A stretch of 64,000 nucleotides of DNA from a virus (IMGVR_UViG_3300043388_000012:1-64000); one strand, 5' to 3'; numbered from the stretch's first letter, positions 20,166 to 63,409 are shown. A program made the numbers and translations. The notes: generated from the letters alone by a model not told the origin.

Positions 20166-20181
20166 GAGCCAGATGCGGGAC
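20166..20181 (-). promoter_or_regulatory. Motif B operator in a leftward promoter
   Basis: GAGCCAGATGCGGGAC; TTGACA on the minus strand at 20191-20186. Confidence 0.65.
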
Positions 20182-20239
20182 ACATTGTCAAGCGCGTAAA
20201 CACGAACGGACCCGCTCGTGTTTGTGCTAGACCACCTGC

Positions 20240-39630: not shown

Positions 39631-39705
39631 GGGTTTGTTCAGTGGGTTTCTGGAGGCTAGGACCCGTCAAAACCCGCTGAAACGGCTTCTAGCATGCGAT
39701 CCCTA

Positions 39706-39765
39706 CGGACTCAAAATCCGGTATCCCTTGCAGGATGTGCCGGTTCGACCCCGGCCTCGGCTACC
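39706..39765 (+). other. attP core: 3' portion of tRNA-Leu(CAA)
   Basis: CGGA-CTCAAAA-TCCG anticodon arm, ATCC-CTTGCA-GGAT variable arm, GCCGG-TTCGACC-CCGGC T arm, CTCGGCT-A-CC; no 5' half upstream; adjacent to int. Confidence 0.88.
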
Positions 39766-39828
39766 GCTTGAAATCGTGGGGCTTTTGACTGAAGCAGCCT
39801 GCAAACTAGAGCCGGATAACGGGGGAGC

Positions 39829-46738: not shown

Positions 46739-47089
46739 ATGAACCGGACGGACGATCGAAGGTGGGGCAGAAGCAAGTTGCTGCGGCATGGGCATCTGCT
46801 CCGCGCGTTACGTGAAGATGCCGGACTGTCTCAAGCGCGGCTCTGTCAGCGGATCGGAATGAGTCCAGCACAGCTCTCGGAAGTCGAGCGCGGGATACAA
46901 CCGCTCTCCCTCCGACGTGCAAACCAGATCGCCAAGGTGCTCGGCAGTTCGTTCGCAGAAGTTGTGCAAGCTGTGCTTCAGGATCGCGTCGAAGATGCCG
47001 GGTTCAGCGAGCTGCAGGTGTCTGTCGTTCCGATCGCGGTTACGGCGACTGTCAACGGACATTCGCACGAAGCTGACAAGCTCCCATAG
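46739..47089 (+). CDS. XRE/Cro-CI HTH regulator (repressor candidate)
   Basis: LRALREDAGLSQARLCQRIGMSPAQLSEVERGIQPLSLRRANQIAKVLG. Confidence 0.87.
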   Translation: MNRTDDRRWGRSKLLRHGHLLRALREDAGLSQARLCQRIGMSPAQLSEVERGIQPLSLRRANQIAKVLGSSFAEVVQAVLQDRVEDAGFSELQVSVVPIAVTATVNGHSHEADKLP

Positions 47090-47106
47090 TGTGGGTTTGA
47101 CAGGCT

Positions 47107-47122
47107 ATCCCTAATGCGGGAC
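47107..47122 (+). promoter_or_regulatory. Motif B operator/promoter of the lipoprotein gene
   Basis: ATCCCTAATGCGGGAC; TTGACA 47097-47102. Confidence 0.7.
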
Positions 47123-47135
47123 GCTTGTCCGCATC

Positions 47136-48035
47136 ATGGCGAAGTTGGCCCTAGCTCTGTTGATCGTGTGCTCTGGTGTCGGATGCATTGGCGCGGAGCC
47201 TGACTCGATCGAGCAGGATGTAGGCGTCGGTACGTACGATCCGGAGCCGGCTCCCATACAGAGGGTCAGCAAGCCGGTCGCAGAAGCTCCCGAGCCATCG
47301 AAGCCGGTCGAGACTACCTCGCAGCCAGCCGTGCAGCCCCTACCTGCCGCGAAGCAAGCTCCGGTCAAGGCAGAGCCGGTCGCAGCTGCTCCGACCGCTG
47401 TAGAGCCTGCAGCTCAACCCGAGCAAGCCGCACAGCCTGAACCGGAGATCGCACAGGAGCCGACTCCGGCTCCCGAGATGACTCCCCCTGTCGTCGTGCC
47501 TGTTCCGGTTCAGGCTGCTCCCGAGCCAGCTCCGGTTACACCTGTCATCGTACCTGCTCCGGAAACGCCCGTCGTGCCTACTGTGTGTCAGCCGGATGTT
47601 TGCGAAGACCCGTATCACTCATGCACTCCGCCGCAAACCGGAGCGCTCGACGAAGGTCACACCGATGCAGGTTCGTGGGCTCGTACGTACACGCTCCACT
47701 CCGTGACTGACATGGATCTCATCTCGTTACCGTTCATGATGCGTAAGAGCTCGACGCTCACAGCGAAGATCGAGACTGACTTACCTCCGGGAGACGAGTA
47801 CTTCCGTTGTGCTGGCGACTCGTACGATGACGGGCATACATGCGGAGCTGGCACAGGTTGGGTCCTGCACAAGGGATGCTTGATCATCGCCTCGGAGTTC
47901 ACGGTTACCTGCCGCGTTACGCCTCCGGCTATCTCGTTCGGCATGCTTTACCTCCTGTTTCACCAGCCTCCGACCGATGGCGAGCTGAAGATCGCCAGCC
48001 GCTGCGAGTACGATGTAGCCGTCAGTTGGCACTGA
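47136..48035 (+). CDS. Predicted lipoprotein with Pro/Glu-rich stalk and Cys-rich domain
   Basis: MAKLALALLIVCSGVGC hydrophobic leader with lipobox-like Cys. Confidence 0.6.
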   Translation: MAKLALALLIVCSGVGCIGAEPDSIEQDVGVGTYDPEPAPIQRVSKPVAEAPEPSKPVETTSQPAVQPLPAAKQAPVKAEPVAAAPTAVEPAAQPEQAAQPEPEIAQEPTPAPEMTPPVVVPVPVQAAPEPAPVTPVIVPAPETPVVPTVCQPDVCEDPYHSCTPPQTGALDEGHTDAGSWARTYTLHSVTDMDLISLPFMMRKSSTLTAKIETDLPPGDEYFRCAGDSYDDGHTCGAGTGWVLHKGCLIIASEFTVTCRVTPPAISFGMLYLLFHQPPTDGELKIASRCEYDVAVSWH

Positions 48036-48061
48036 AATCTGCGAATAGCCCTTGCGCGTGA

Positions 48062-48077
48062 GTCCCGGATAGGGGAC
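48062..48077 (+). promoter_or_regulatory. Motif B operator/promoter
   Basis: GTCCCGGATAGGGGAC; TTGCGC-17 nt-GACACT. Confidence 0.78.
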
Positions 48078-48117
48078 ACTTTACTCCAGACGAGCAAACC
48101 GCTCGGAAGGAGTAGCC

Positions 48118-49110
48118 GTGAGGAAGTTGTTTTCGCAGGTCTCGGAAGACGTCAGCTGCATCGTTGGTTGGGCCATGTTTGCGTACACGCTCGGAGGCTC
48201 GAAGCTGCATCTGATGGATGCAGTGCGGCGCATCGTGGGCAAGTCCGACCGCTGAAGCGTTGGCGCTCCCGAGTCGATCATGACTCGGGTTGCGCGAGCT
48301 CTTCAGCTCGATGGAGGTCACATGCCGCTGCATACGTACGGATTCGCAAACGAGCACAGCAACCTGATTGGCTACAAGGCCGATCAATCACGTGAAAGCG
48401 CGCGCGATTGGGCGAGAGAATGGCTCGAACAGCATCCCGAAGCGACCTGCGTTGAGGTCTGGCGAGACGGCAGGGATGAAGATGGTGAGCCGTTTCCTTC
48501 GTTCGTTGTCCGTAGAGAGCCCGCGGAGGCTCAATCATGAAGCGTGATGTTCTGATGTTTTGCGGCGGTTTTGCTGTGGCGATCGCGCTGGCTAGCCAAG
48601 CCGTGCATGCTGATCCGACTCCGGCTCTCGACCGTCAGCTGATGGATGCGATTGCGCGCTCGCTCGCCGATCAAGTTCGTGCGACAGAGAAGGTTGCGAA
48701 CGCGACTGAGCGCGTTGCAAGCCAGGTCGAACGGGCAGGAGAGCGATGCAGATGACAACTCCACAGCAGCCGGCAATCACACTCGAGATGCAGCTCAAAG
48801 GGCTCGAATGGAAGCTGCACGAGGGCCAATGGCAGCCTGTCTGTGGCACGTGCAAGGGCAACTGTGGCCAGTGCGGCTTGACCGGCATCATCGGCAACGA
48901 TGTGCAGGCGAGCATGGAAGCTCTCGCGAAGAACCTAACCAGGGGCTCGTGACGATCACTCAAGCGCTGAAGCTAGCGGAGCTCGTGCGGAAGGTTGGGC
49001 CCGAGACTCCCGCGCATGAAGCTCTAGTCACGCTAGCGGCCGCATACATCGAGCTCCTGAACCCGAAGGAGCCGAAGCCGGATAAGCGGCTAATCGGACC
49101 CAAGCGCTAA
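48118..49110 (+). other. Small-gene operon behind the motif-B promoter at 48052
   Basis: 48118-48255 (AAGGAG RBS, below ORF-track cutoff), 48280-48540, 48537-48755 (signal-peptide-like), 48746-48952, 48949-49110. Confidence 0.65.
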
Positions 49111-49811
49111 GCGCACAAAACGCTAGGCGGGCGTTTGCGTCGGCGCGTCGACTCGCAGAACTCGCACATCGTTTGGCGGCCAGTGCGGCGAACGAACGGA
49201 TCGCCGCAGCGCTTGCAGTCCGGAGTCGCGATCGTGAGCTTCCCAATCCAACTAACGTCGCCTCCGTTGTTGTCTCTGAGCTTCGAGAGCGCGCTGTTCT
49301 CGATCTGTCTGACGCGCTCACGAGTGATCGACATGTACTCGCCGATCTCCTCGAGGGTCATCCCGCATGGATGCTTGCGCACAGCATCTTTCGCAGCTGT
49401 ATGGTTATCCCACTCGAGATCCGCCCATGGGTCTGGTATGTGCGCAGGGGCTCGACCTCTCCGCTTCGGCGCAATCGGCGGCGGAGGCGGTTGGCGTACT
49501 CGGAGCCGCGGTAACGTCGGCTGCGGCGAGATGAAGGCAGGCATGATCTGCCGCACTCGGAGCCGAGGAACCGCGGGAGGCGTTGGAGGTATCTGGCGAA
49601 CTCTCAGGCGAGGCGATGCGACTGAAAAGGGAATCATCGCGACCGGAGGCGGTTGACGATTCTGGAGGCCTGAGAGAGCTGCTATCGGGGTTGTTGATCG
49701 AATTCTGTACCGCACCAGGGAGTTTTGCATCTGCCCTGCATGTAGGTGGCTAGTCACCACAAAACACTGAAGGTCGAATTCGGTTTTTGACGAACTCTTG
49801 ACGTTGAGCAA
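49107..49811 (-). CDS. Stand-alone sigma70 region-4 protein with Pro/Arg repeats and C-terminal Zn finger
   Basis: MTLEEIGEYMSITRERVRQIENSALSKLR; CKRC..CEFC; no region 2 recognised. Confidence 0.85.
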   Translation of the reverse strand: MLNVKSSSKTEFDLQCFVVTSHLHAGQMQNSLVRYRIRSTTPIAALSGLQNRQPPPVAMIPFSVASPRLRVRQIPPTPPAVPRLRVRQIMPAFISPQPTLPRLRVRQPPPPPIAPKRRGRAPAHIPDPWADLEWDNHTAAKDAVRKHPCGMTLEEIGEYMSITRERVRQIENSALSKLRDNNGGDVSWIGKLTIATPDCKRCGDPFVRRTGRQTMCEFCESTRRRKRPPSVLCA

Positions 49812-49826
49812 TCACCTTGACGTGAA

Positions 49827-49842
49827 GTCCCGGATGCGGGAC
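49827..49842 (+). promoter_or_regulatory. Motif B operator (perfect arms) between the sigma-4 and Fis-like genes
   Basis: GTCCCGGATGCGGGAC; TTGACG-17 nt-GACACT. Confidence 0.85.
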
Positions 49843-49861
49843 ACTCAAGGAGTTGAAAGGG

Positions 49862-50158
49862 ATGGTCACTGTGAAGAAAATGCTGAAGTTGCGCGCGATT
49901 CAAACGCTGCACGGTAACGAGGCGGCGACTCAGGAGATTCTGCGAGCTCTCAAGCTCTCACAAGGCAACATGCGCGATGCGTGTGCGGCGTTGGGTATCG
50001 GGAAATCTTCGATGTATCGCTTGATCGAAGACCTGAACGCACAAGCTGCGATCGACAAGCTCGTTGCCTCCCTCGGCGTGAAGATTCAGGGCAAGGAGTT
50101 GTCTGCCGCCGCAGCTCCGGTCAAGGGCCCGAAGCCGCGCGTGAAGAAGGTCGCATGA
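49862..50158 (+). CDS. Fis-type HTH protein
   Basis: ILRALKLSQGNMRDACAALGIGKSSMYRLI. Confidence 0.75.
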   Translation: MVTVKKMLKLRAIQTLHGNEAATQEILRALKLSQGNMRDACAALGIGKSSMYRLIEDLNAQAAIDKLVASLGVKIQGKELSAAAAPVKGPKPRVKKVA

Positions 50159-50794: not shown

Positions 50795-51205
50795 CTAGCC
50801 AGAGCTGGGTAAGGAGGCATTCATGCAGTCTTCGCAGAACTCCGGATGACGCATCGTTCGGCGCGCACTCCGAAGCGAGCTCTCTCCGAGAATCGTTGCG
50901 TGAGCCGAGCACACAACTGCGTAGCGGGCTCCGCAGTCGATGCCCTGCTCCGATGCCACGTAGACAACGATCCGGGAGCCTGAAGCCGCGTAGACAGCTT
51001 CTGCGATGTGCCCTGCTTCCCTGCGCGCGGGAAACCTCCGGGCAATATGCCGCTCGCAGAGGTAACGGACTTCGCCAGTGAAGCCGCACACTCGGCAGTA
51101 GCGGCCTAGATCGACACAAGCCTTCGCAGAGTGGTCGGGAGCCGCGCAGTGCTCGCAGGCATCGCACACGGCTTGCACGATCCGGAGCTCGTTACGTTTG
51201 CCCAT
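50795..51205 (-). CDS. Cassette gene, Cys-rich, predicted leaderless
   Basis: ATG 6 nt after -10 CACACT of a motif-B promoter. Confidence 0.75.
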   Translation of the reverse strand: MGKRNELRIVQAVCDACEHCAAPDHSAKACVDLGRYCRVCGFTGEVRYLCERHIARRFPARREAGHIAEAVYAASGSRIVVYVASEQGIDCGARYAVVCSAHATILGESSLRSARRTMRHPEFCEDCMNASLPSSG

Positions 51206-51214
51206 GATCAGAGT

Positions 51215-51230
51215 GTGCCGGATACGGGAC
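51215..51230 (-). promoter_or_regulatory. Motif B operator/promoter
   Basis: GTGCCGGATACGGGAC. Confidence 0.85.
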
Positions 51231-51318
51231 ACAAAAGCAAGTCGACCCGAGCCATTTTCTGACTCCAGGTCGACTTGCTTTGGGAGGCGGCATCCTACCG
51301 CCTCTGCTGCCCTGCTCT

Positions 51319-51525
51319 TCAGTGAGCGGCTAGCTCCCGATACAGCGCGTTCGTGCGCTCGCTCGCATCGGCAAAGCTCTGCAGGGTGCGAGTGCTCTTA
51401 CTCACATCGTGCCGCTCGCTTGCGGCGTGTTCCGCCTTGAGAGCGATCGCGATATCCGCGCGGATTGCGTCGGCGGAGCGCTTGGGTTGCTTCTTCGTGG
51501 TCCGGCTTTGTTTCGTCTTCGGCAT
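51319..51525 (-). CDS. Cassette gene, predicted leaderless
   Basis: ATG 6 nt after -10 TACTCT. Confidence 0.75.
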   Translation of the reverse strand: MPKTKQSRTTKKQPKRSADAIRADIAIALKAEHAASERHDVSKSTRTLQSFADASERTNALYRELAAH

Positions 51526-51534
51526 GTGTTTAGA

Positions 51535-51550
51535 GTACCGGATGCGGGAC
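51535..51550 (-). promoter_or_regulatory. Motif B operator/promoter
   Basis: GTACCGGATGCGGGAC. Confidence 0.85.
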
Positions 51551-51590
51551 AGAATGCAAACCGACTCACGTCGATTTTGGCGCCAGTATC

Positions 51591-51833
51591 CTACACCCCT
51601 AGTTCGCGGCGAGCAGCTGCGATGGCGAGCTCCGCCGCTTCTTGCGTAGTGAAGTAGGCGATGTTCGAACCCCCGTCGACGTTCCGCACTGGCCAGCCGA
51701 GGATATCCGCCATCATCGCGACTGCGATGCGCGGGAAAGCAGCCTTCAAGCCGCGGTTCTTCGCGTAGTCTGCCGCATACGTCAGCACGGCTTGTGCCGC
51801 TGTCTTGTCGGCGGCGGTTGTCTTCTTGGCCAT
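51591..51833 (-). CDS. Cassette gene, predicted leaderless
   Basis: ATG 6 nt after -10 CACACT; MAKKTTAADK... Confidence 0.75.
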   Translation of the reverse strand: MAKKTTAADKTAAQAVLTYAADYAKNRGLKAAFPRIAVAMMADILGWPVRNVDGGSNIAYFTTQEAAELAIAAARRELGV

Positions 51834-51842
51834 GATCAGAGT

Positions 51843-51858
51843 GTGCCGGATGCGGGAC
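51843..51858 (-). promoter_or_regulatory. Motif B operator/promoter
   Basis: GTGCCGGATGCGGGAC. Confidence 0.85.
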
Positions 51859-51909
51859 AGATATGCAATCCGATTGGAGGCGGCAAAGATGCCGCCTCCG
51901 GGGGAGCTC

Positions 51910-52215
51910 TCAGACTGCGAAGGCGGCCGCAATGACAGGAGCGCACAGCCGGGCATATTCATCGCGCGCAGCGCTCCGGTTGCCTACCAAAACACCGTTC
52001 ACTTCGATTTGATCCCAAGCGCGGACATCGTTTGAGTCATACGAGGCGACTTTCATCGACACACATACTTCGATGCCGTTCGGGATCGAGAGGCAGAATG
52101 CTTTGATGTGCGTGTTCGCCATGATCTCGCCGCAGTGGTAGGCGAAGGTCGAGAGCACGTGCTCTTGAATCTGTTGTTTTGAGGTAGTAGCAACTTTGGG
52201 GGACTTCTTGCTCAT
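51910..52215 (-). CDS. Cassette gene, predicted leaderless
   Basis: ATG 6 nt after -10 CACCAT. Confidence 0.75.
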   Translation of the reverse strand: MSKKSPKVATTSKQQIQEHVLSTFAYHCGEIMANTHIKAFCLSIPNGIEVCVSMKVASYDSNDVRAWDQIEVNGVLVGNRSAARDEYARLCAPVIAAAFAV

Positions 52216-52224
52216 GTCTTTATG

Positions 52225-52240
52225 GTGCCGGATGCGGGAC
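52225..52240 (-). promoter_or_regulatory. Motif B operator/promoter
   Basis: GTGCCGGATGCGGGAC. Confidence 0.85.
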
Positions 52241-52290
52241 AGATACGCAAGCTGATTTGAGGCGGCAGGAAGCCGCCTCCGGGGAGAGCT

Positions 52291-52599
52291 TCAGCGCGGC
52301 TTGAGCGCCATATGCGGTTCGACAACGTAGTCGAAGCACTCGGATGCTTTGCCGATGATGCGCCCAACCTGTTTCCAGGACTTGGCTTGACGCACATTGC
52401 AGTCACGGTCGATGAACGCGCGCACGCCGTTCTTAGGGCAGGAGATGCGGGCATACTTGGGCCCGATAGTCGCCTCGAAGTCGCGATAGAGCGGGACCTT
52501 GCCATCACACTCGATGAGCTTGACGCGTACATTGCAGGCTTCGATGAAGGCTGCGACGAAGCCCGAGAAACTGTCAGCGGCTGAGTTGCTGTTGTCCAT
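52291..52599 (-). CDS. Cassette gene, predicted leaderless
   Basis: ATG 6 nt after -10 TACTGT; GPKYARI...VRAFID...AKSWKQ. Confidence 0.75.
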   Translation of the reverse strand: MDNSNSAADSFSGFVAAFIEACNVRVKLIECDGKVPLYRDFEATIGPKYARISCPKNGVRAFIDRDCNVRQAKSWKQVGRIIGKASECFDYVVEPHMALKPR

Positions 52600-52608
52600 G
52601 TCTAAACA

Positions 52609-52624
52609 GTACCGGATGCGGGAC
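52609..52624 (-). promoter_or_regulatory. Motif B operator/promoter
   Basis: GTACCGGATGCGGGAC. Confidence 0.85.
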
Positions 52625-52690
52625 AGATAAGCTAGGCGGTTCGAGACGATTTTGGAGGCGGCGTCCTACACACACGCCTCCGGGGGAGCT

Positions 52691-52939
52691 TCAGTGCGTG
52701 AAGCCTTCCCAGCTGCAAGCCGGTTTGCTGGCGTCCTTCCGGAAGCCAATGGCTCCGAGTTGCTCACACTGAATCCAGCCGGAGAGGGAGAGGTTTTGCC
52801 GCAAGCCGCAGCCACATTTTGGGCAAACACCAGAGGCAACGACTGCTCGCGTCTCCGCTTGTTGGGCTGCGATCCGAGCATCGCTCGCAGCGCGCTCCGC
52901 CTTGCGTGCCGATCGTTCCGTTTTGCTCATGCGTGCCAT
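52691..52939 (-). CDS. Cassette gene with Zn ribbon, leadered
   Basis: GGAG RBS before ATG 52939; CPKCG..C..C. Confidence 0.7.
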   Translation of the reverse strand: MARMSKTERSARKAERAASDARIAAQQAETRAVVASGVCPKCGCGLRQNLSLSGWIQCEQLGAIGFRKDASKPACSWEGFTH

Positions 52940-52981
52940 GCGTTTACTCCGAGGTGCGTTGCGTTGCTGACAGTTGATAGA

Positions 52982-52997
52982 GTTCCGGATACGGGAC
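52982..52997 (-). promoter_or_regulatory. Motif B operator/promoter
   Basis: GTTCCGGATACGGGAC. Confidence 0.85.
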
Positions 52998-53013
52998 AGA
53001 TACGCAAGCCGAT

Positions 53014-53160
53014 TCAGGTCGACTTTTTGGCGGCGCATTGCGCGCGGTTGATCTGCTCCCAAAGTGCTTCGAGAGCGAGCGTCAGAGCTTTGGCTTCGTC
53101 CGTATCTCCCATGCGGGAGAGCTTGGCTTCGATGATGTGAACCGCGGTGATTTTTTCCAT
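53014..53160 (-). CDS. 48 aa cassette gene absent from the ORF track, predicted leaderless
   Basis: MEKITAVHIIEAKLSRMGDTDEAKALTLALEALWEQINRAQCAAKKST; ATG 6 nt after -10 TACTGT. Confidence 0.7.
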   Translation of the reverse strand: MEKITAVHIIEAKLSRMGDTDEAKALTLALEALWEQINRAQCAAKKST

Positions 53161-53169
53161 GTCCAAACA

Positions 53170-53185
53170 GTACCGGATGCGGGAC
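53170..53185 (-). promoter_or_regulatory. Motif B operator/promoter
   Basis: GTACCGGATGCGGGAC. Confidence 0.85.
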
Positions 53186-53239
53186 AGATAAGCAAGCCGA
53201 GTTCAAGGGGGAGATACCCTCCCCCTTGGTAGGCAAGTC

Positions 53240-53542
53240 TTAGAACTTACCGACGTTGCGGCGGATTTCCGCAACGATGGTGATTTGGATGCCGCATGCG
53301 GCGGCCCATTCGAGCCAGCCTTCGCGCAAGCGCTCGATCGCGTACTCCTCGGACTTGTGTCCGTTGATGCAGTCAACCGCGGCAGGTCGACCGCGGCCTT
53401 TGATCGTTTCCGCCCATTTTACGAGCGAGACCGAGTCTTTCGACCCTTTGATCGAGATGCCGACAATGGAGTTGCCCGGAGTGAAGAAAGACGTGCCAGT
53501 GATGATTTGGAGTTGCGCGATGCTGTTGTTGTTCGTGGTCAT
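53240..53542 (-). CDS. Cassette gene, leadered
   Basis: GGAG RBS; MTTNNNSIAQ...; downstream hairpin CAAGGGGGAG..CTCCCCCTTG (53204-53228). Confidence 0.7.
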   Translation of the reverse strand: MTTNNNSIAQLQIITGTSFFTPGNSIVGISIKGSKDSVSLVKWAETIKGRGRPAAVDCINGHKSEEYAIERLREGWLEWAAACGIQITIVAEIRRNVGKF

Positions 53543-53582
53543 GTTGTTCGGCTCCGGGTTGTTGCGTTGACTTGGTAAACGT

Positions 53583-53598
53583 GGCCCGCATCCGGGAC
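53583..53598 (-). promoter_or_regulatory. Motif B operator, leftward promoter at the divergence centre
   Basis: GGCCCGCATCCGGGAC. Confidence 0.82.
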
Positions 53599-53662
53599 AG
53601 ATGCAAACCGAATCGAGCCGATTTTGCGGGCGATGTAGGCAAGCCGATTTCGGGTTGCACGT

Positions 53663-53678
53663 GTCCCGCATCCGGGAT
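53663..53678 (+). promoter_or_regulatory. Motif B operator, rightward promoter at the divergence centre
   Basis: GTCCCGCATCCGGGAT. Confidence 0.85.
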
Positions 53679-53689
53679 AGGTTAGACGT

Positions 53690-54145
53690 ATGGACAACGG
53701 CAACGACAAACCAACGATTCAGAGCTTCGGCGTGCTGGCTGGCGCGTACCTGAACCACGCGAAAGACACTGCGTTTCTCACGCATGCGTGCGAGGTCGAC
53801 TCGAACGGCTATCCGGTCAAGGTCCTCTGCAACCGAGTGAAGGCAGAGCACATCTGTCCGGATGGCTACTCGGACGAAGAGTTAGCGGGCCCTGCTACCT
53901 GCCCTGCCTGTGCGAAGAAGGACCCTCGGCATCTCACACGAGAGCGCAAGGAGGCGTTGATCTGGCGACATACGTCGAAGGATTACCGCGGAGTCGTTGG
54001 CGGCGCGAAGACGATCCTTGTGCTCCGGTTGGGCGGAACTACGCTCGTACCGCTCTCCGGTCTCACGGATGCGGAGCTAGCGAGCGAGCTCAAGAGCGCG
54101 CAGCACGCCGAAGCCAAGCGGCTGGCGAAGAAGACGGCGAAGTGA
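53690..54145 (+). CDS. Cassette gene, predicted leaderless
   Basis: TTGCAC-17 nt-TAGGTT-6 nt-ATG. Confidence 0.78.
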   Translation: MDNGNDKPTIQSFGVLAGAYLNHAKDTAFLTHACEVDSNGYPVKVLCNRVKAEHICPDGYSDEELAGPATCPACAKKDPRHLTRERKEALIWRHTSKDYRGVVGGAKTILVLRLGGTTLVPLSGLTDAELASELKSAQHAEAKRLAKKTAK

Positions 54146-54372
54146 TGGATGCGATCACATGGACGCTACAGGCAGGTACTCCGCACTACGCGTCTAGCTG
54201 CGGCCGCTACGTTGCTCTGTATGTGCGCACGAGCCGGACAGGCTTCGCGATCTACCGAGTGTTCCGGGCAAGCCTGCCGTATGCACAGCGGAAAGAACGC
54301 AACGCGCTCTCGGTCGGCGGCTTGCCAGCTCTCGCCTATTGGGAGCGCAAGGAGCTCCCAGAAGGAATGTAA
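54145..54372 (+). CDS. Hypothetical gene coupled to 53690-54145
   Basis: TGATG overlap; its stop TAA lies inside motif A at 54368. Confidence 0.6.
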   Translation: MDAITWTLQAGTPHYASSCGRYVALYVRTSRTGFAIYRVFRASLPYAQRKERNALSVGGLPALAYWERKELPEGM

Positions 54373-54385
54373 CCTCGAGGATACA
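54368..54385. promoter_or_regulatory. Motif A site
   Basis: TGTAACCTCGAGGATACA, overlaps the stop at 54372. Confidence 0.85.
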
Positions 54386-54437
54386 CGGAGGCGTGTAGGA
54401 TGCCGCCTCCAAAATCGGTGCGAGTCGAGTTGCATCC

Positions 54438-54453
54438 ATCCCGCATCCGGGAC
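54438..54453 (+). promoter_or_regulatory. Motif B operator/promoter
   Basis: ATCCCGCATCCGGGAC. Confidence 0.85.
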
Positions 54454-54492
54454 ACATTGAGATTGTCAGCAGCAACCGAAGGACGAACGAAG

Positions 54493-54726
54493 ATGACCGC
54501 GAACACTTGGTACACGATGAGCTTCCGCGATGGTGTGGTCGTCTACTTCCTCCCGAACGGCGAGATTCAAAAGAACAGCAAGCGAGTTGGCTTGCTCGTG
54601 ACAGTCGATACCACGCGACCGCGCGCCAAGCCGAGCTCCAAGAAGTCCGCTGTTCATCCTCTCGAGTTCAGCGGCTGGAAGGTCGCAGAGATTGTGCCTG
54701 CCGCCGTCGCACTTCTCGGGATGTGA
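54493..54726 (+). CDS. Cassette gene, leadered
   Basis: GAAGGA RBS downstream of the motif-B promoter at 54430. Confidence 0.7.
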   Translation: MTANTWYTMSFRDGVVVYFLPNGEIQKNSKRVGLLVTVDTTRPRAKPSSKKSAVHPLEFSGWKVAEIVPAAVALLGM

Positions 54727-54837
54727 GCAACACCTACACGGGAAATCGGATCGGGACGGAGCGTATGACACCTAACCTCGAAGCTCGTGCGGTTGCGGAG
54801 GCTTGCGAGCAATCGGTCTAGACCGGCTTGCACATCT

Positions 54838-54853
54838 GTCCCGCATCCGGCAC
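54838..54853 (+). promoter_or_regulatory. Motif B operator/promoter
   Basis: GTCCCGCATCCGGCAC. Confidence 0.85.
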
Positions 54854-54862
54854 AGTAACGGT

Positions 54863-55105
54863 ATGAACACGGCAACGAAAACGGCTCTCCAGACCAACGC
54901 AACGCGGATCGCGACCTGGATGGCGGCCGCCGACGAGGATGGCGATGGCTCGCCGATTCAAGGGATGGCTGCGAAAGTCTCCGAGCTGGCGCAAACCCTG
55001 CTCGCGATTCGCGATACCGCATGGTCGCGCACTCTCCTGACAGTGCTCCCGATGCACCTGCGAGACCGCGTGATCGCGGCAGGCCGCCAGCTGAAAGCAG
55101 CCTAG
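54863..55105 (+). CDS. Cassette gene, predicted leaderless
   Basis: TTGCAC-17 nt-CACAGT-6 nt-ATG. Confidence 0.75.
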   Translation: MNTATKTALQTNATRIATWMAAADEDGDGSPIQGMAAKVSELAQTLLAIRDTAWSRTLLTVLPMHLRDRVIAAGRQLKAA

Positions 55106-55227
55106 GGGGAAGGAGCTAGGGAGCCTCGAACGGGCTCCCGGAGGCACTACGGAGCCGGAATAGCCCGGCTCCCGAGCTCTGGAGCTGAAGCGGATCGGAT
55201 CGGCCCCGATCGATGGTAGGATAGGGT

Positions 55228-55437
55228 ATGCGAACAAAGTCAAAAGTGAGTGCGAAACAGCAAGCAGCTCGGGAGCTTCTTGCGGCAGAGCTTCCGCCTG
55301 TGTCGGACAAAATCATGCTCCGTGAGTTTCTGCGGCTGAAGGGGCTAACACGCGACGATCTCGCTACGTCTGACGTCGATGACTTGCAGCGCCTACAAGC
55401 CTACTTTCAGGCAGTTGAGCGGATTTTCCACGTGTAG
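55228..55437 (+). CDS. Small gene without a motif-B operator
   Basis: TAGGAT 5 nt before ATG. Confidence 0.55.
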   Translation: MRTKSKVSAKQQAARELLAAELPPVSDKIMLREFLRLKGLTRDDLATSDVDDLQRLQAYFQAVERIFHV

Positions 55438-55477
55438 GCATCGAGCGCTAAAAATCGGAGCCGATCGTGTTGCATGT

Positions 55478-55493
55478 CTCCCGTATCCGGGAC
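55478..55493 (+). promoter_or_regulatory. Motif B operator/promoter
   Basis: CTCCCGTATCCGGGAC. Confidence 0.85.
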
Positions 55494-55504
55494 ACAATCT
55501 CTCT

Positions 55505-55834
55505 ATGGCAACCGAACACACCGTAGCACTGACGATTCTCGCGCAACTCGGCAACCGCTGCATGCAGATGATCGGCGCGAAGAACATCCTGACCTCCGAG
55601 AACGCGCTCACCTTCAAGATTGGGCGCAACGCTAAGAGCGTGTCGCACATCCGCATCTCCCTTGATGCTGATGACACCTACACGATCGAAGCTCTCCGAG
55701 TGCGGAAGCAGAACGGTGTGCCGAAGTGCACGACGGTCGAGATTAGCTCGTGTGTGTACGTTGACCGGATGCACAAGACGATCGAGCGCTTCACGGGCAT
55801 GTATACGAGCCTCGGCACGATGGGCGCGAAGTAG
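55505..55834 (+). CDS. Cassette gene, predicted leaderless
   Basis: TTGCAT-17 nt-CACAAT-6 nt-ATG. Confidence 0.78.
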   Translation: MATEHTVALTILAQLGNRCMQMIGAKNILTSENALTFKIGRNAKSVSHIRISLDADDTYTIEALRVRKQNGVPKCTTVEISSCVYVDRMHKTIERFTGMYTSLGTMGAK

Positions 55835-55846
55835 GCGGTTGCCGAA

Positions 55847-55870
55847 GCGGGAGGTATATATACCTCCCGC
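55847..55870. repeat. Perfect 24-bp palindrome GCGGGAGGTATATATACCTCCCGC
   Basis: Read directly; core AGGTATATATACCT recurs at 55890-55903. Confidence 0.95.
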
Positions 55871-55934
55871 ACATCGGCGTTTCACCTACAGGTATATATA
55901 CCTCTCCCGGAACTTCAGAGATCGGCTTGCGTGT

Positions 55935-55950
55935 GTACCGGATGCGGGAC
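55935..55950 (+). promoter_or_regulatory. Motif B operator/promoter
   Basis: GTACCGGATGCGGGAC. Confidence 0.85.
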
Positions 55951-55961
55951 ACAATCTGATC

Positions 55962-56333
55962 ATGAGCAACGCGGTCAAGTTCCTCGGTACCTCGGATGAA
56001 GTCACAACCTGTGACTGCTGCGGCAAGGCGAATCTCAAGAGCACGGTCGCTCTGTCCATCGATGAAGCCGAGCCTGTGCATTTCGGCGTTACCTGTGCGG
56101 CGCGCGCGTTGAAGACTGGCGTAAACGAGGTCAAGCGCGGCACTGCTGCAGCCGACCGGGAGCGCGCAGAAGCGGAGCGCAAAGCACGCGCCGAAGCGGA
56201 GCGAGTTGCTTCGGCTCCTTGGTACGCCTTCCTTGCGGCTCACGGCATGGGCGACAACAACTTCAGCCGCATCGAGTCACTTGGCGGCTACAAGGCGGCG
56301 CGCGCGCGGTTCGAGGCGGAGCAGGGCAAGTAG
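55962..56333 (+). CDS. Cassette gene with Zn finger, predicted leaderless
   Basis: TTGCGT-17 nt-CACAAT-6 nt-ATG; CDCCG..HFGVTCA. Confidence 0.78.
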   Translation: MSNAVKFLGTSDEVTTCDCCGKANLKSTVALSIDEAEPVHFGVTCAARALKTGVNEVKRGTAAADRERAEAERKARAEAERVASAPWYAFLAAHGMGDNNFSRIESLGGYKAARARFEAEQGK

Positions 56334-56372
56334 GATACCGGCTCCAGAATCGGATCGGGGCGGCTTGCGATA

Positions 56373-56388
56373 GTCCCGCATCCGGGAC
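56373..56388 (+). promoter_or_regulatory. Motif B operator/promoter (perfect arms)
   Basis: GTCCCGCATCCGGGAC. Confidence 0.87.
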
Positions 56389-56399
56389 ACTATGACTGC

Positions 56400-56648
56400 A
56401 TGGACACAGCAAACACGGCGGAACGGTTGGCGGCGAAACTGACTCAGGAACTGAATCGGATCGTGGGCGACCGGGGCAAGGTTATCCACGTTGTCACCGA
56501 AGGTCTCGGGCATGGCTGGTGTGTGGTCTTCGACACGGAACATGCCGCGCTCAAGGCGTACCACACCTACAGGTACTCGAAGGGTATTACCTTCGGCGAG
56601 TCGAAGAACCTGAACGGCTGGTATATCTCGACTGAACCCACGGTGTAG
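56400..56648 (+). CDS. Cassette gene, predicted leaderless
   Basis: TTGCGA-17 nt-CACTAT-6 nt-ATG. Confidence 0.78.
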   Translation: MDTANTAERLAAKLTQELNRIVGDRGKVIHVVTEGLGHGWCVVFDTEHAALKAYHTYRYSKGITFGESKNLNGWYISTEPTV

Positions 56649-56676
56649 GCACAATCGGATCGGGGCCCTTGCATGG

Positions 56677-56692
56677 GTCCCGCATCCGGGAC
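56677..56692 (+). promoter_or_regulatory. Motif B operator/promoter (perfect arms)
   Basis: GTCCCGCATCCGGGAC. Confidence 0.87.
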
Positions 56693-56703
56693 ACAATCTA
56701 TTC

Positions 56704-56973
56704 ATGCAATCGAATCAAGCAACGCAGACGAAGACGAAGAAGCCGAGCAAAACTGCCATGAAGTTCCTCGGCCTTGCCGCCAAGGTCAACAGCTGGTCGC
56801 ACAAGCTCGAAGGTACGCACATCGCCAACATGAAAGATTGGTGGATTGAGCTTGAAGCCGCGGGTTACTGCGAGATCACGCACACGGTAGGTGCGATGTG
56901 GTGCAAGATTACGCCTGCCGGTCGCATCGCACTCGACGCGCACATCGCATCGGGCGGTAAGGTAGCGCGCTGA
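56704..56973 (+). CDS. Cassette gene, winged-helix-like, predicted leaderless
   Basis: TTGCAT-17 nt-CACAAT-6 nt-ATG; WIELEAAGYC...WCKITPAGRIAL. Confidence 0.75.
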   Translation: MQSNQATQTKTKKPSKTAMKFLGLAAKVNSWSHKLEGTHIANMKDWWIELEAAGYCEITHTVGAMWCKITPAGRIALDAHIASGGKVAR

Positions 56974-57041
56974 AATCCTAAGGGATGACGGGGGGAGCAG
57001 GACGGCTCCCCCAGAATCGGCATTGCTCGGCTTGCATATCT

Positions 57042-57057
57042 GTCCCCCATGCGGGAT
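57042..57057 (+). promoter_or_regulatory. Motif B operator/promoter
   Basis: GTCCCCCATGCGGGAT. Confidence 0.8.
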
Positions 57058-57066
57058 AGTTACTGC

Positions 57067-57492
57067 ATGGACAGCAACGCAGTACTGGTTGATGTGACTC
57101 GGTTCATGTACGCGGGAAACGCGAGTTTCACCGTAGTTTCCAACGCGACGGGCGTGCGCTTCACGTTCAAGGTTCGCGCCAAGGAAGTCGAAGGCGGCGC
57201 CACGCTTCACTTTGTGTCGGTCCTGACAGGCTCCGATAACGAGAGCGATTACACGTTCCTCGGAACCATCTTCAACCGCACGAGCTTCCGGCATGGCGCG
57301 CGATCGAGCATCGGAGTGGCAGCGCCATCGGCGAAGGCCTTTGCATGGTTCTTCCGCAATGTTGCAGGCGGTAAGCTGCAAGGCGCGACAGTGCATCACG
57401 AAGGCCGCTGCGGCCGCTGCGGCCGGAAGCTGACGGTTCCTGAGTCGATCCTGACCGGGCTAGGGCCCGAGTGCGCTGGTAAGGCGGCCTGA
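57067..57492 (+). CDS. Cassette gene with DUF6011-like Zn finger, predicted leaderless
   Basis: TTGCAT-17 nt-GATAGT-6 nt-ATG; CGRCGRKLTVPESILTGLGPEC. Confidence 0.75.
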   Translation: MDSNAVLVDVTRFMYAGNASFTVVSNATGVRFTFKVRAKEVEGGATLHFVSVLTGSDNESDYTFLGTIFNRTSFRHGARSSIGVAAPSAKAFAWFFRNVAGGKLQGATVHHEGRCGRCGRKLTVPESILTGLGPECAGKAA

Positions 57493-58395: not shown

Positions 58396-58698
58396 ATGCG
58401 GCTTGAATCGTATCCACTCAACATTAAAGCGACAGCTGGCAACGGAACGTCGCAGCTAGTTCGCGACTTGCGTGAGAAATACGTTCAGATCGGCGGCGGA
58501 GCGTTCACAGGCTCGTTGCAAGTCGAAGTGAGCTTGAACGGCGGCACTGACTATTTCGCGTCGGGCGCTGCGATCACTGCTCCGATCGTGTTCAGCATCC
58601 CAGAGCCTGCGACGCATATCCGCATCGTTACCGGCTCGCTCTCGCTAGGTGCCCCGACCGCCTGTGTCAACGGCTACAACACCCGAACAGAGGGCTGA
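58396..58698 (+). CDS. Small beta-rich protein, possibly structural
   Basis: Coupled to the portal gene; LQVEVSLNGGTDYF. Confidence 0.55.
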   Translation: MRLESYPLNIKATAGNGTSQLVRDLREKYVQIGGGAFTGSLQVEVSLNGGTDYFASGAAITAPIVFSIPEPATHIRIVTGSLSLGAPTACVNGYNTRTEG

Positions 58699-60665
58699 TG
58701 GGAGCGGACGGCGAACAGTCTGCGGAGCAGCACATCGACGCTTCGCTACCGCGGGAGGTCATCGTCAAGGCATACGCGATCGGCAACGATCGGGTGAGCC
58801 TCGAGAAGGCAGATCAACAGTCAACGACTGACTCGATCTCGACCTTGTTCGGCGATGCGGCGATGAAGATCGATGCGATCGATCCTCCGTATGACCCGGA
58901 GCGGTTGTGTCGTGTGTACGAATACTCGAGTCTGTTGCGTCAGAACGTCGACGCTTACAAAACGAACATCGACGGCTTCGGCCATGTGTTCGAGCCTGTG
59001 ATTCAGCTCAAGGAAGCGGGAGCTCGCGACCTGGTCTCTGACGCGATCGAACTTGAGCGCGCTGAGAAAGCGAATACGGGCGCAGAAGGCGGGTTCGCCG
59101 AGTTTCAGCCGGTGACTCCAGATGACATCACTAAGAAGATCGAGGCGCTCAAGTACCTAATGCGCCTCGAAGAAGCTCGTATCAAGAGCTTCTTCCAATC
59201 GTGCGTTGCAGAAGAAAGCTTCACTTCACTTCGTCGTAAAACTCGAGAAGACATCGAGGTCACAGGTAACGGTTACTGGGAAGTGCTCCGCAACGATGCT
59301 GGCGGGATTTCGCAGTTCGTACACATGCCAGCTCGCTCGGTTCGAGTCACGAAGAACAAGGGCAACCCGGCTACCGTCTCGCAGCAGGTTCGTACAGGTC
59401 TCTTCACGTTCCGAACCGAGACCTATCGGCGGAAGTTTCGACGCTACGTGCAGACGAGCGGCGATGATTCGCGCTACTTCAAAGAGTTCGGAGACCCTGC
59501 AGTCGTATCGAGCAAGTCAGGCCGTGAGTTCGCAACACTCGAAGAACTGCAGGCCGCAGAAGAAGGCGTCGACGCTGCAAACGAGGTCTTTCACTTCAAG
59601 ATTCACAGCGTGAAGAGTGGCGCCTATGGCGTGCCTCGTTGGATCGGCAACCTGCTAAGTGTGCTCGGCTCTCGCAGTGCCGAAGAAGTGAATCTCGCGT
59701 ACTTCAACAACAAGAGTGTGCCTCCGATGGCCATTCTCGTCTCAGGCGGTAGGCTCGGCGAAGAGTCGGTCAAGCGCATCGAAGACTTCGTTGAGACGAA
59801 GCTCAAAGGCGCGAACAACTTTCATAAAATCCTCGTGATCGAGGCGGAGACTACAGCCGGCTCGCTCGGTATGGCAGAGAACACTGGGAGCATGCGCGTC
59901 GAGATCAAGACACTGACCGACGCGCAACTCAAAGATGGTTTGTTTCTGCAGTATGACGCGGCGAACATGGATAAGGTCGGCATGGGCTTTCGCCTGCCGC
60001 GCTTGCTCCGCGGCGACATCCGAGACTTCAACCGCGCATCCGCGGAAGCCGCGCTCGACTTCGCTGAGTCACAAGTCTTCGTGCCTGAACGCAACGACTT
60101 CGACTTCGCTATGAACCGGTTCATTCTGCCCTGCTTCGGGATCAAATATTGGACGTTCAAGTCCAATGGCCCGCGGCTCTCTGATGCGCAGAGTTGGGGT
60201 GAGATGATCACGAAGCTCACGACCGCGGGCATCCTCACTCCCGAAGACGCCCGTGAACTCGTAGGCAAGAAGGTGCTCGCCTCCGAGCTGGCGGTCATCG
60301 ATGCCGATTGGGTCAAGCAGCCACTCGCTCTGACCATCGCTGGCATCCAAGCCGACACAGTTCTCGATGGTGAGATCCCGATGATCGATGCAGCCGGTTC
60401 GGTTGCTGGCGGAGTGTCGGCAGATCCGAACGTCGGCATATCGATCGGCGATCCGAGCCTCGCGATGAAGGCGAAGTCGATTCTCGCTCGCAAGGCGAAG
60501 TCGCTCCTGAAGCTCCGCGATGCCTTCATGAAGGAAGAAGCGACTGCAGCCGTCGCATCGTACAAGCGCGAACGTGCAGCCGAGCAGGCGGCGAGCGGAG
60601 AGCTCGTGATCAAGATGTCTGCGGCTGACATCGCATCTCAGCTCGGTATCACGAAGGTCTCGTAA
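58698..60665 (+). CDS. Phage portal protein (PBSX-like)
   Basis: GNGYWEVLR, YGVPRWIG, YFNNKSVPPMAILVSGG, FRLPRLLRGD, FNRASAEAA. Confidence 0.88.
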   Translation: MGADGEQSAEQHIDASLPREVIVKAYAIGNDRVSLEKADQQSTTDSISTLFGDAAMKIDAIDPPYDPERLCRVYEYSSLLRQNVDAYKTNIDGFGHVFEPVIQLKEAGARDLVSDAIELERAEKANTGAEGGFAEFQPVTPDDITKKIEALKYLMRLEEARIKSFFQSCVAEESFTSLRRKTREDIEVTGNGYWEVLRNDAGGISQFVHMPARSVRVTKNKGNPATVSQQVRTGLFTFRTETYRRKFRRYVQTSGDDSRYFKEFGDPAVVSSKSGREFATLEELQAAEEGVDAANEVFHFKIHSVKSGAYGVPRWIGNLLSVLGSRSAEEVNLAYFNNKSVPPMAILVSGGRLGEESVKRIEDFVETKLKGANNFHKILVIEAETTAGSLGMAENTGSMRVEIKTLTDAQLKDGLFLQYDAANMDKVGMGFRLPRLLRGDIRDFNRASAEAALDFAESQVFVPERNDFDFAMNRFILPCFGIKYWTFKSNGPRLSDAQSWGEMITKLTTAGILTPEDARELVGKKVLASELAVIDADWVKQPLALTIAGIQADTVLDGEIPMIDAAGSVAGGVSADPNVGISIGDPSLAMKAKSILARKAKSLLKLRDAFMKEEATAAVASYKRERAAEQAASGELVIKMSAADIASQLGITKVS

Positions 60666-62773: not shown

Positions 62774-63024
62774 AGCGCCTAGTGCAAGTTGATCCAGAGA
62801 CGTACAAACCCGCGGGAGTGGTCTGCACGTTCGAGCTTGTCGGAGACAAGGTCGAAGTAGTCCCTGCGGATGGTCTCGACCGATGGCGGAACGTCGCAGA
62901 GCTCGTGTTGGGGAGCGAGATCCTGACTCCGAGCGACGGCAAGGCGTATTACGATGCTCTCGGATCGATTCGCGGCTCCTATTTTTTCGTCGAAGAAGTT
63001 CCGGAGACCGAAGCAACCAAGTAG
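62770..63024 (+). CDS. Small acidic protein
   Basis: ATGA-coupled to the MuF-kinase gene. Confidence 0.6.
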   Translation: MKRLVQVDPETYKPAGVVCTFELVGDKVEVVPADGLDRWRNVAELVLGSEILTPSDGKAYYDALGSIRGSYFFVEEVPETEATK

Positions 63025-63036
63025 TTTCTCCCTGCT

Positions 63037-63327
63037 ATGGCAGGCGAACTACTCGAGTTGATCACGAGTCACGATCCGTCGCTCAAGCAGCGCGTGTTGA
63101 CACGCGTGCAGCACGTTATCGCTGACTCGTTTAGAGCAGACAAGTCACGCCGCACAACCTCCGAGGTAGTGCGGCGGTTCAAGATCCTCGAGACCTTGAT
63201 GCGAGAGCTCCGGCATGACTACGGATGGGCGTTCGAACGGATTCTCGACGCTATGCCTGTAGCGCTCCGATGCAAGCTCGACGGCATCCCGTGGGCGCCC
63301 GATTTGAAGCGCAACTCTTGGGTGTAA
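63037..63327 (+). CDS. Hypothetical protein
   Basis: Its stop codon lies inside motif A at 63323. Confidence 0.6.
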   Translation: MAGELLELITSHDPSLKQRVLTRVQHVIADSFRADKSRRTTSEVVRRFKILETLMRELRHDYGWAFERILDAMPVALRCKLDGIPWAPDLKRNSWV

Positions 63328-63340
63328 CCTCGAGGATACA
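63323..63340. promoter_or_regulatory. Motif A site
   Basis: TGTAACCTCGAGGATACA, overlaps the stop at 63327. Confidence 0.85.
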
Positions 63341-63409
63341 ATCTGGAGCTGCACGGCTTATTGCGATCTGTATGTTGGCCAGCGTCTACTTTGGGCAACA
63401 GGAGATCCG

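Follow-up and report, generated by a model that had tools for sequence, protein, structure and literature searches.

In T4-like phages, early-promoter stem-loops (PeSLs), which are short units of a stem-loop and a sigma-70-like early promoter, lie between the small, non-essential ORFan genes of a variable region, and the insertions, deletions and replacements that separate close relatives are bounded by these units (Arbiol et al. 2010, PMC2839356; Comeau et al. 2014, PMC4122927). The array described here occupies 50.8-57.5 kb of the window, a 64,000-nucleotide stretch of viral DNA (IMGVR_UViG_3300043388_000012:1-64000) that forms the first 64 kb of an 82,209-bp IMG/VR virus record with an estimated completeness of 75%. 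It comprises 18 small genes and 16 copies of a promoter module, diverging from about 53.63 kb. The array works like the PeSLs, its nearest described precedent, but is not a member of the PeSL set. We think it reasonably probable that it is a variable early accessory region under repressor control, built of portable leaderless modules that double as recombination homology. Conserved inverted repeats mark the early promoters of phiC31, repressors act at the OR and OL sites of lambdoid phages, and the cI mRNA that lambda makes from PRM is leaderless. Cluster A mycobacteriophages carry many copies of a repressor site, the stoperator, throughout their genomes (PMC9283540, PMC6550527, PMC5712189); recombination between these repeated sites is known and causes deletions (PMC5712189). 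Leaderless mRNAs number 375 in Caulobacter crescentus and 171 in Sinorhizobium meliloti; in Caulobacter they account for 9.6% of coding sequences and are translated as well as leadered mRNAs (PMC4117421), with an efficiency set by accessibility of the start codon, a leader of zero length and the use of AUG (PMC8459731).

The module is about 90 bp long, of which about 60 bp run from the -35 box to +15. All 16 copies share one frame, a -35 box TTGC(A/G)T, a 17-nucleotide spacer and a -10 hexamer NANNNT, if the copy at 51525, with an 18-nucleotide spacer, and the copy at 52599, with the box TAGCTT, are counted. The hexamers (CACAAT, CACACT, CACCAT, CACAGT, CACTAT, TACTGT, TACTCT, TAGGTT and GATAGT) have in common an A at position 2 and a T at position 6. 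In 13 of the 16 modules an ATG lies exactly 6 nucleotides past the -10 hexamer, its A being the seventh base; TTGC(A/G)T stands at 17 nucleotides in 11 of these 13, the others being the two just named. The ATGs are at 51205, 51525, 51833, 52215, 52599 and 53160 on the minus strand, and at 53690, 54863, 55505, 55962, 56400, 56704 and 57067 on the plus strand. A preliminary description of this DNA had listed these starts as having that spacing and no Shine-Dalgarno sequence, and both statements held for the whole set: 13/13 follow a NANNNT hexamer at 6 nucleotides, and 0/13 have a GGAG, GAGG or AGGA core between -16 and -4. When the operator, described below, is left out of the search pattern, TTG-N21-A-N3-T-N6-ATG matches 11 times in 64 kb, always inside the array, against an expectation of 0.84 +/- 0.96 from 100 shuffles. 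By promoter geometry a -10 hexamer covers positions -12 to -7. The A of each of the 13 ATGs is thus the expected +1, and transcripts are predicted to start on it, giving leaderless mRNA.

The upstream part of the module contains a (G)TAGGAT..CCGCCTCC element and an A-tract, AAAATCGG, at about -56 to -49, the position expected of an UP element. The (G)TAGGAT..CCGCCTCC element serves either as the 3' arm and loop of a GC hairpin or as the source of the TAG stop of the preceding gene. Hairpins with GC stems of 7-10 bp stand upstream of most promoters, so that the array modules share with PeSLs the intergenic arrangement of a stem-loop ahead of a sigma-70-like promoter. The standard expression module proposed in the preliminary description does exist but is larger than was noted, extending from the hairpin element to about +15 of the coding sequence. 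The promoters resemble host sigma-70-type promoters, which fits early expression. Measured against the E. coli consensus, TTGCAT and CACAAT are weak, and for this reason a generic promoter scan did not report these promoters.

At 20 promoters the spacer contains a 16-bp palindrome, GTCCCG-N4-CGGGAC, that extends into the -10 hexamer. Its 13-nucleotide core, CCCGCATCCGGGA, occurs 32 times with no more than 2 mismatches, against 1.8 occurrences expected, and almost all of these are at 47-57 kb. The palindrome is found in two registers that are 2 nucleotides apart, with the positions of the -35 box, the -10 hexamer and the ATG unmoved, and in the plus-strand module at 55927 its asymmetric centre is inverted. 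The palindrome thus behaves as an operator separate from the promoter elements. A site within the optimal 17-nucleotide spacer is the classic position from which a repressor blocks RNA polymerase, and a palindromic site over the promoter core at several promoters, as observed here, is a feature of repressor regulons.

Searches with the portal protein revealed a family of phages of about 105-120 kb, and those with 94-64% portal identity retain the operator and the -10/ATG spacing. The closest, L040 (94%), has the same modules, with the ATG 6 nucleotides past the -10 hexamer in seven and 7 nucleotides in one; between the window and L040 the -10-to-ATG stretch differs in sequence, but its length is kept in 7/8 modules. 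L141 and L142 hold the left arm, with three exact leaderless-type modules each. L139 (66%) has TTGCTA-17-GACAGT-6-ATG with AAAATCGG upstream. In G001 (64%) there are 11 operator sites, versus 0 for a reversed control pattern, and its modules include TTGCAT-17-GACACT-6-ATG and TTGACA-17-GACACT-6-ATG, with GTG at the ATG position in two. L039 (70%) has three copies of GTCCCGCATGCGGGACACT-N6/7-ATG with a poor -35 box. A scan of IMG/VR for the exact operator returned 30 single matches, all of which look like chance except L033, which is the same as G001; a ParB-like protein used as a probe for relatives found nothing.

The predicted 5' ends of the 13 genes also resemble those of leaderless messages. 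In coding sequence and leaders alike, the first 15 or so transcribed bases of the modules show a conserved, A/C-rich sequence (ATGGACAACAGCAAC and variants), and from +4 to +27 the 13 genes have a base composition of 35% A, 32% C and 9% T. CA-rich downstream sequence has been reported as an enhancer of leaderless translation in E. coli. The first 35 nucleotides of these genes fold more weakly than other gene starts (-3.0 versus -5.1 kcal/mol, p=0.003), as do the first 50 relative to other starts in the phage (p=0.0009), and folding is weaker, too, than in windows from the interior of these genes (p=0.0005 for 35 and 0.0006 for 50 nucleotides). An in-frame downstream start with a Shine-Dalgarno core was found in none of the 13 within the first 40 codons. 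AUG start, lack of a Shine-Dalgarno sequence and accessible 5' end therefore go together in 13/13 genes, all with ATG, and the A/C-rich, weakly folded ends match the determinants of Caulobacter leaderless mRNAs (PMC8459731). Judged by sequence, these ends look adapted to leaderless translation.

The remaining modules have the alternative arrangement:

-35 boxes at 53007 (minus strand), 53606 (minus) and 54430 (plus): leadered modules, without an ATG at +1 and with a Shine-Dalgarno sequence, GGAG or AAGGA, before the start codon

Modules thus have two explicit solutions, an ATG at +1 or a Shine-Dalgarno leader, and none is without both. A common leader, GTCA(GC)AACGCAAC, opens the three leadered modules (52941-52960, 53552-53577 and 54465-54483). 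In L039, at 905-925, GTCAGCAGCAGCAAC follows the ATG directly, as it occurs in the leader of the leadered modules; the initial transcribed sequence is therefore conserved whether it is translated or not. The contrast that the preliminary description drew with operon genes elsewhere, said to use a ribosome-binding site or coupling, stands in part: 70/108 open reading frames (ORFs) outside the array have a Shine-Dalgarno core at some candidate start, but only 40/108 have one at the start of the longest ORF. Many late-operon genes (58396-64000, and 64001-70000 of the record) have no recognisable core. This pattern suggests a host with low Shine-Dalgarno dependence.

The array consists of 8 leftward and 10 rightward genes encoding 48-151 residues. 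An all-against-all BLASTP comparison detected no paralogues among the 18, and the picture of about 18 small unrelated genes pointing away from about 53.63 kb is borne out; the back-to-back operators placed at 53583 and 53663 are located at 53583-53598 and 53663-53678. Codon-usage scores back most of the genes, the highest score in the array being that of 53690-54145. An ORF at 54149-54460, considered as the second rightward gene, is spurious, as 54145-54372 is the frame that L040 conserves. The features of the array are as follows:

50795-51205, minus strand: cassette gene of 136 residues, Cys-rich, predicted leaderless; -35 box at 51240; no Pfam or PHROG match

51319-51525, minus strand: cassette gene of 68 residues, predicted leaderless; 18-nucleotide spacer and -10 hexamer TACTCT; conserved in L142

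51591-51833, minus strand: cassette gene of 80 residues, predicted leaderless; TAG stop inside the GTAGGAT element of the next module

51910-52215, minus strand: cassette gene of 101 residues, predicted leaderless; GGAGGCGGC/GCCGCCTCC hairpin after the gene

52291-52599, minus strand: cassette gene of 102 residues, predicted leaderless; degenerate -35 box TAGCTT

52691-52939, minus strand: cassette gene of 82 residues, leadered; -35 box at 53007, conserved GTCAGCAAC leader, GGAG

53014-53160, minus strand: cassette gene of 48 residues, predicted leaderless; conserved in L040

53240-53542, minus strand: first leftward gene, 100 residues, leadered with a Shine-Dalgarno sequence; 99% identical in L040

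53570-53689: array centre, two back-to-back promoters, each with an operator; -35 boxes at 53606 (minus) and 53655 (plus)

53690-54145, plus strand: first rightward gene, 151 residues, predicted leaderless; -10 hexamer TAGGTT

54145-54372, plus strand: gene of 75 residues coupled to 53690-54145 by a TGATG overlap, as seen in the sequence; 75-residue orthologue in L040

54484-54726, plus strand: cassette gene of about 77-80 residues, leadered; module at 54430, GTCAGCAGCAAC leader, AAGGA

54863-55105, plus strand: cassette gene of 80 residues, predicted leaderless from module geometry

55228-55437, plus strand: remnant ORF without a module of its own; a 71-residue gene fused to the last 27 residues of a PIN-like gene

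55505-55834, plus strand: cassette gene of 109 residues (phrog_9437), predicted leaderless from module geometry; PHROG match

55962-56333, plus strand: cassette gene of 123 residues, predicted leaderless; an unrelated 116-residue gene in L040, junction at +15

56400-56648, plus strand: cassette gene of 82 residues, predicted leaderless from module geometry

56704-56973, plus strand: cassette gene of 89 residues, predicted leaderless; replaced in L040, junction at +10

57067-57492, plus strand: cassette gene of 141 residues (DUF6011, phrog_20259), predicted leaderless from module geometry; family match

Gene content was compared across related phages, as the preliminary description had advised, and single cassettes prove to be inserted or replaced with junctions in the modules. 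L040 has one extra cassette (L040 1537-1864), with module copies on both sides. Where the window has 55977-56345 and 56714-57015, whole genes are swapped for unrelated ones in L040; the upstream junctions lie 15 and 10 nucleotides, respectively, after the ATG, and the downstream junctions 17-20 nucleotides ahead of the next -35 box. A third replacement, at 50833-51200 relative to L142, brings in an unrelated gene with its junction 5 nucleotides after the ATG, and L141 has other cassettes past 51303. Near-identical copies thus flank small ORFans and bound one insertion and three replacements, which is the behaviour that characterizes PeSLs. The junctions vary in position within long stretches of homology, as homologous recombination predicts. 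One internal deletion does not follow the modules: window 55228-55437 is the remnant of a gene pair that is intact in L040. There, at 2586-3175, a 71-residue gene overlaps a 125-residue gene with a weak PIN domain (Pfam PIN, E=2e-4, just below the cut-off), a VapBC-like arrangement within the array.

Operators also occur in four promoters beyond the array, with -35 boxes at 20191 on the minus strand and at 47097, 48052 and 49817 on the plus strand, and three helix-turn-helix (HTH) proteins are encoded near the array:

20163-20191, minus strand: distant promoter with an operator, TTGACA-17-CTCCAT, directed towards the leftward operon at 15.8-20.0 kb

46739-47089: XRE-type HTH protein near the array

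47097-48090, plus strand: two promoters with operators beyond the array; -35 boxes at 47097 and 48052

49107-49811, minus strand: protein with sigma-70 region 4.2 and a zinc ribbon (sigma-r4); a long ORF, conserved in frame in all relatives examined

49817-50158, plus strand: operator-bearing promoter TTGACG-17-GACACT and the gene of a 98-residue Fis-type HTH protein (49862-50158), the best repressor candidate

The idea that the 98-residue protein is the repressor is based on its distribution. Its gene is present together with the operator in 6/6 loci (the window, G001, L139, L141, L142 and L143), and in each the operator lies directly upstream of the gene. L138 and L140 have neither the operator nor this gene but keep the sigma-r4 gene (61-69% identity) and the XRE gene. 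Because the 98-residue protein co-occurs with the operator, whereas the sigma-r4 and XRE genes persist where there is none, phyletic co-occurrence makes the former most likely the operator-binding repressor; the sigma-r4/zinc protein was considered for this role and set aside, since it is present in loci without the operator. The 49107-49811 ORF has four N-terminal R-x-R-[VI]-R repeats, the motif KRRGRAPAHIPDPWADLEW and a CxxC...CxxC ribbon, and its HTH is nearly identical to region 4.2 of sigma-70, the reader of the -35 box; gene callers often annotate the last 91 or so residues alone. It is not a sigma factor, because region 2 is absent, but it might compete with or redirect the host sigma. 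L138 and L140 (62-64% portal identity) carry, between the sigma-r4 gene and the portal gene, a YpsA-like gene and a gene of about 340 residues (L138 8578-9624, L140 8664-9665) in place of the array. A precomputed Pfam label, AcrVA2-like, on the latter gene was not reproduced by our own Pfam scan and is given no weight.

A mechanism can be proposed that would account for these features. Each module presents, in order, a GC hairpin or GTAGGAT element, the AAAATCGG A-tract, a sigma-70-type promoter, the operator and, in 13 of 16 copies, the ATG. Host RNA polymerase would start the transcript with AUG; the next 15 or so nucleotides of coding sequence are rich in A and C and weakly structured. The operators would be bound by a phage HTH protein acting as a dimer, most probably the 98-residue Fis-type protein, itself autoregulated, which would shut some 20 promoters together, either in lysogeny or as early feedback. 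Homologous recombination between near-identical modules would insert, delete and replace single genes, and the leaderless design would spare an incoming ORF the need for a ribosome-binding site of its own. It is possible to go further and to regard the array as a capture and expression device free of ribosome-binding sites, which would provide promoter, operator, transcript start, AUG and the first few A/C-rich codons, so that recombination within the first 5-15 coding nucleotides could install any foreign ORF for immediate expression, and which could let the phage go on translating the leaderless set when Shine-Dalgarno-dependent initiation is impaired by the phage or by the host. This extension is doubtful, and robustness of the array to a shut-off of translation is speculation.

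Several observations weigh against the repressor-controlled leaderless array. Its start sites are predicted from promoter geometry only, and the hexamers are weak by the E. coli consensus. The assignment of the repressor comes from 8 loci of about 10-22 kb each. No function was found for the cargo in Pfam, PHROGs, PDB, Atlas and one fold search, and hairpins free of U tracts leave read-through or polycistronic transcripts possible. In L039 the box 17 nucleotides upstream is TGGCGC or TGGCTT rather than TTGNNN, with the operator, GACACT and the ATG spacing kept; this conserved element could be more than an operator. The persistence of GTCCCGCATGCGGGACACT-N6/7-ATG in L039 without a good TTGNNN at 17 nucleotides is also the main point in favour of a different role for the palindrome: together with ACT it would be recognized by a transcription complex under phage direction. 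Host RNA polymerase might, for example, be redirected by the sigma-r4/zinc-ribbon protein (49107-49811) or by the Fis-type HTH protein as an activator, and the cassettes would be delayed-early or middle genes. The weak -10 hexamers and the stand-alone region 4.2 protein that adjoins the array and is conserved in all relatives would suit such a complex. We nevertheless regard it as unlikely, since few positions are better conserved than TTGC(A/G)T or TTGACA at exactly 17 nucleotides in the window, L040, L139, L141, L142 and G001, and since the palindrome, unlike a positioning element, slides by 2 nucleotides against the -35/-10/ATG frame and occupies the place of a classic repressor site. The sigma-r4 protein is encoded in the palindrome-free L138 and L140 too, and neither a phage RNA polymerase nor a full sigma factor was seen among the large ORFs.

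It has also to be considered that two long, divergent polycistronic RNAs might arise from the central promoters, with the ATGs as internal, Shine-Dalgarno-independent starts and the modules chiefly as repressor road-blocks, as sites of RNA processing or stabilization, or as recombination sites. This would leave unexplained the fixed ATG at the seventh base in 13 modules, where spacing is kept as the sequence drifts, the presence of a Shine-Dalgarno leader in exactly the three modules that lack an ATG there, and the unusually unstructured first 35-50 nucleotides, and it seems to us somewhat unlikely. It draws on the hairpins, none of which is followed by a U tract, on the lack of enrichment of terminator-like sites (9 found in a terminator scan, 7.9 expected), on several intergenic gaps of just 6-31 nucleotides, and on low Shine-Dalgarno use throughout the phage, with the precedent of Caulobacter, in which 75% of genes have no Shine-Dalgarno sequence (PMC4117421). 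It is likely that transcripts are nested or read through, and the one-gene units of the preliminary description are at most putative. Capture of genes by site-specific recombination, in an integron-like or other array with the palindrome repeat as the recombinase site, is scarcely credible: the junctions fall at varying points in long homology, as for homologous recombination, the same palindrome occurs in promoters far from the array, and an adjacent integrase, attC sites and promoterless one-way cassettes are not what the array displays. Its cassettes have their own promoters and two orientations, and no recombinase gene adjoins it. Imperfect palindromes are indeed repeated between single-gene cassettes whose content varies among close relatives, and the phage does have genes for a tyrosine integrase and a serine recombinase, but these are at least 11 kb away.

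The cargo of the array offers few functional clues. Pfam and PHROGs searches with all 18 cargo genes returned only DUF6011/phrog_20259 and phrog_9437, both without known function. PDB sequence searches with two cargo proteins gave nothing usable, and Atlas searches with two further ones, that of 53690-54145 among them, gave no usable lead. The 141-residue DUF6011 protein has a confident AlphaFold model (pLDDT 93.9), for which there was no Foldseek match at E<=0.001 and a best VIA-align Z of 5.2, and hence no informative fold. The DUF6011 family of phages is very large: 4,384 cluster representatives were counted at E<=0.001. Homologues of DUF6011 and phrog_9437 occur in phages of Brevundimonas, Caulobacter, Rhizobium, Sinorhizobium, Agrobacterium and Rhodobacter. 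In Brevundimonas phage Kabachok the DUF6011 homologue stands behind a GGAG leader, and in Agrobacterium phage Milano the phrog_9437 homologue has a leader with an annotated ribosome-binding site (GGAG). Since these two cargo homologues have Shine-Dalgarno leaders elsewhere, the predicted leaderless state belongs to the module and not to the cargo. A role of the cargo in host takeover or anti-defence may be suggested by analogy with variable early regions only.

The genome has a G+C content of 56-60% in the window and encodes a family-B DNA polymerase, a recombinase, an SbcC-like protein, a large terminase, a portal protein and a MuF-like head protein, in addition to the tyrosine integrase and the serine recombinase; the phage is probably temperate. 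With the array and the first 20 kb as queries, no DNA-level match was found among phage records, and an Rfam search of 46-58.5 kb found no family. The portal is of the PBSX family, and its nearest matches in phage records (Bacillus, Rhizobium and Rhodobacter phages) are only 30-34% identical. In prokaryote genomes its nearest relatives (loci L058-L137, 43-52% identity) come in the great majority of cases from Myxococcota assemblies. The cargo points instead, through the two genes that have homologues, to alphaproteobacterial phages, and the host signals are in conflict. The 3' half of a tRNA-Leu(CAA), at 39698-39768, adjoins the integrase gene and resembles an attP core. None of 5 genomes with portal relatives contained a match to it, and its best match among about 400 Pseudomonadota genomes was 82-86% identical over most of its length. 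Portal relatives, cargo relatives and this attP-like half did not yield a host. The idea of a haloarchaeal virus, whose leaderless genes would have a TATA box near -28, was given up, as the TTGNNN-17-NANNNT frame fits bacterial promoters; it is also opposed by the portal matches in phage records and bacterial genomes and by the occurrence of the tested cargo homologues in bacterial phages.

Comparison with the systems outlined at the outset shows which features are shared. The array resembles the PeSLs both in the unit of stem-loop and promoter between small genes and in the changes that these units bound. Unlike PeSLs, its modules carry a palindromic operator and, in 13/16 cases, a start codon at the predicted +1, and hence would supply translation initiation too. 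The phage group is another one, the portal type and the lack of a DNA-level match placing the array outside the hyperplastic region of T4-like myoviruses, and the hairpins, which have no U tracts, are at most putative terminators. With the phiC31 and lambdoid regulons the array shares a palindromic site, apparently for a dimeric HTH protein, that overlaps the promoter core at many early promoters, and a candidate repressor gene with the site in its own promoter. It differs in having about 20 sites, each in a complete, near-identical promoter module, and a putative binder that is a 98-residue Fis-type HTH protein and not CI-like. The multiplicity of sites recalls the stoperators of Cluster A. 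Those sites, however, are asymmetric 13-bp sequences that are bound by a monomer in an orientation-dependent manner and block elongation in transcribed regions, whereas the array site is a 16-bp palindrome in promoter spacers and is not a stoperator.

Like known leaderless mRNAs, those predicted for the array would begin with AUG at an unstructured 5' end and lack a Shine-Dalgarno sequence; unlike them, they would serve a whole accessory block through a common module. A non-exhaustive literature search found no paper on such a block in a bacteriophage. The preliminary description had named this the best candidate for an undescribed system in the window. As a kind of system it is not undescribed: PeSL-type cassettes, multi-operator repressor regulons and leaderless mRNAs are all known, but their combination and systematic use appear undescribed. 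If the host is alphaproteobacterial, the array would put ordinary cell biology to systematic use; in another host it would perhaps be more unusual. The cassettes constitute a pool of about 25 or more small ORFans with fast turnover, the usual source of host-takeover and anti-defence functions, and the compact, repressor-controlled module is a possible portable expression part for bacteria that translate leaderless mRNAs well. Were the capture device to prove real, it would amount to phage-wide leaderless translation, which is not described for bacteriophages. Confirmation of the start sites would mean that an entire class of accessory genes is expressed as leaderless mRNAs from one interchangeable module. 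Modular shuffling of the PeSL type would then extend beyond the T4-like phages, with translation initiation added to the load of the mobile cassette.

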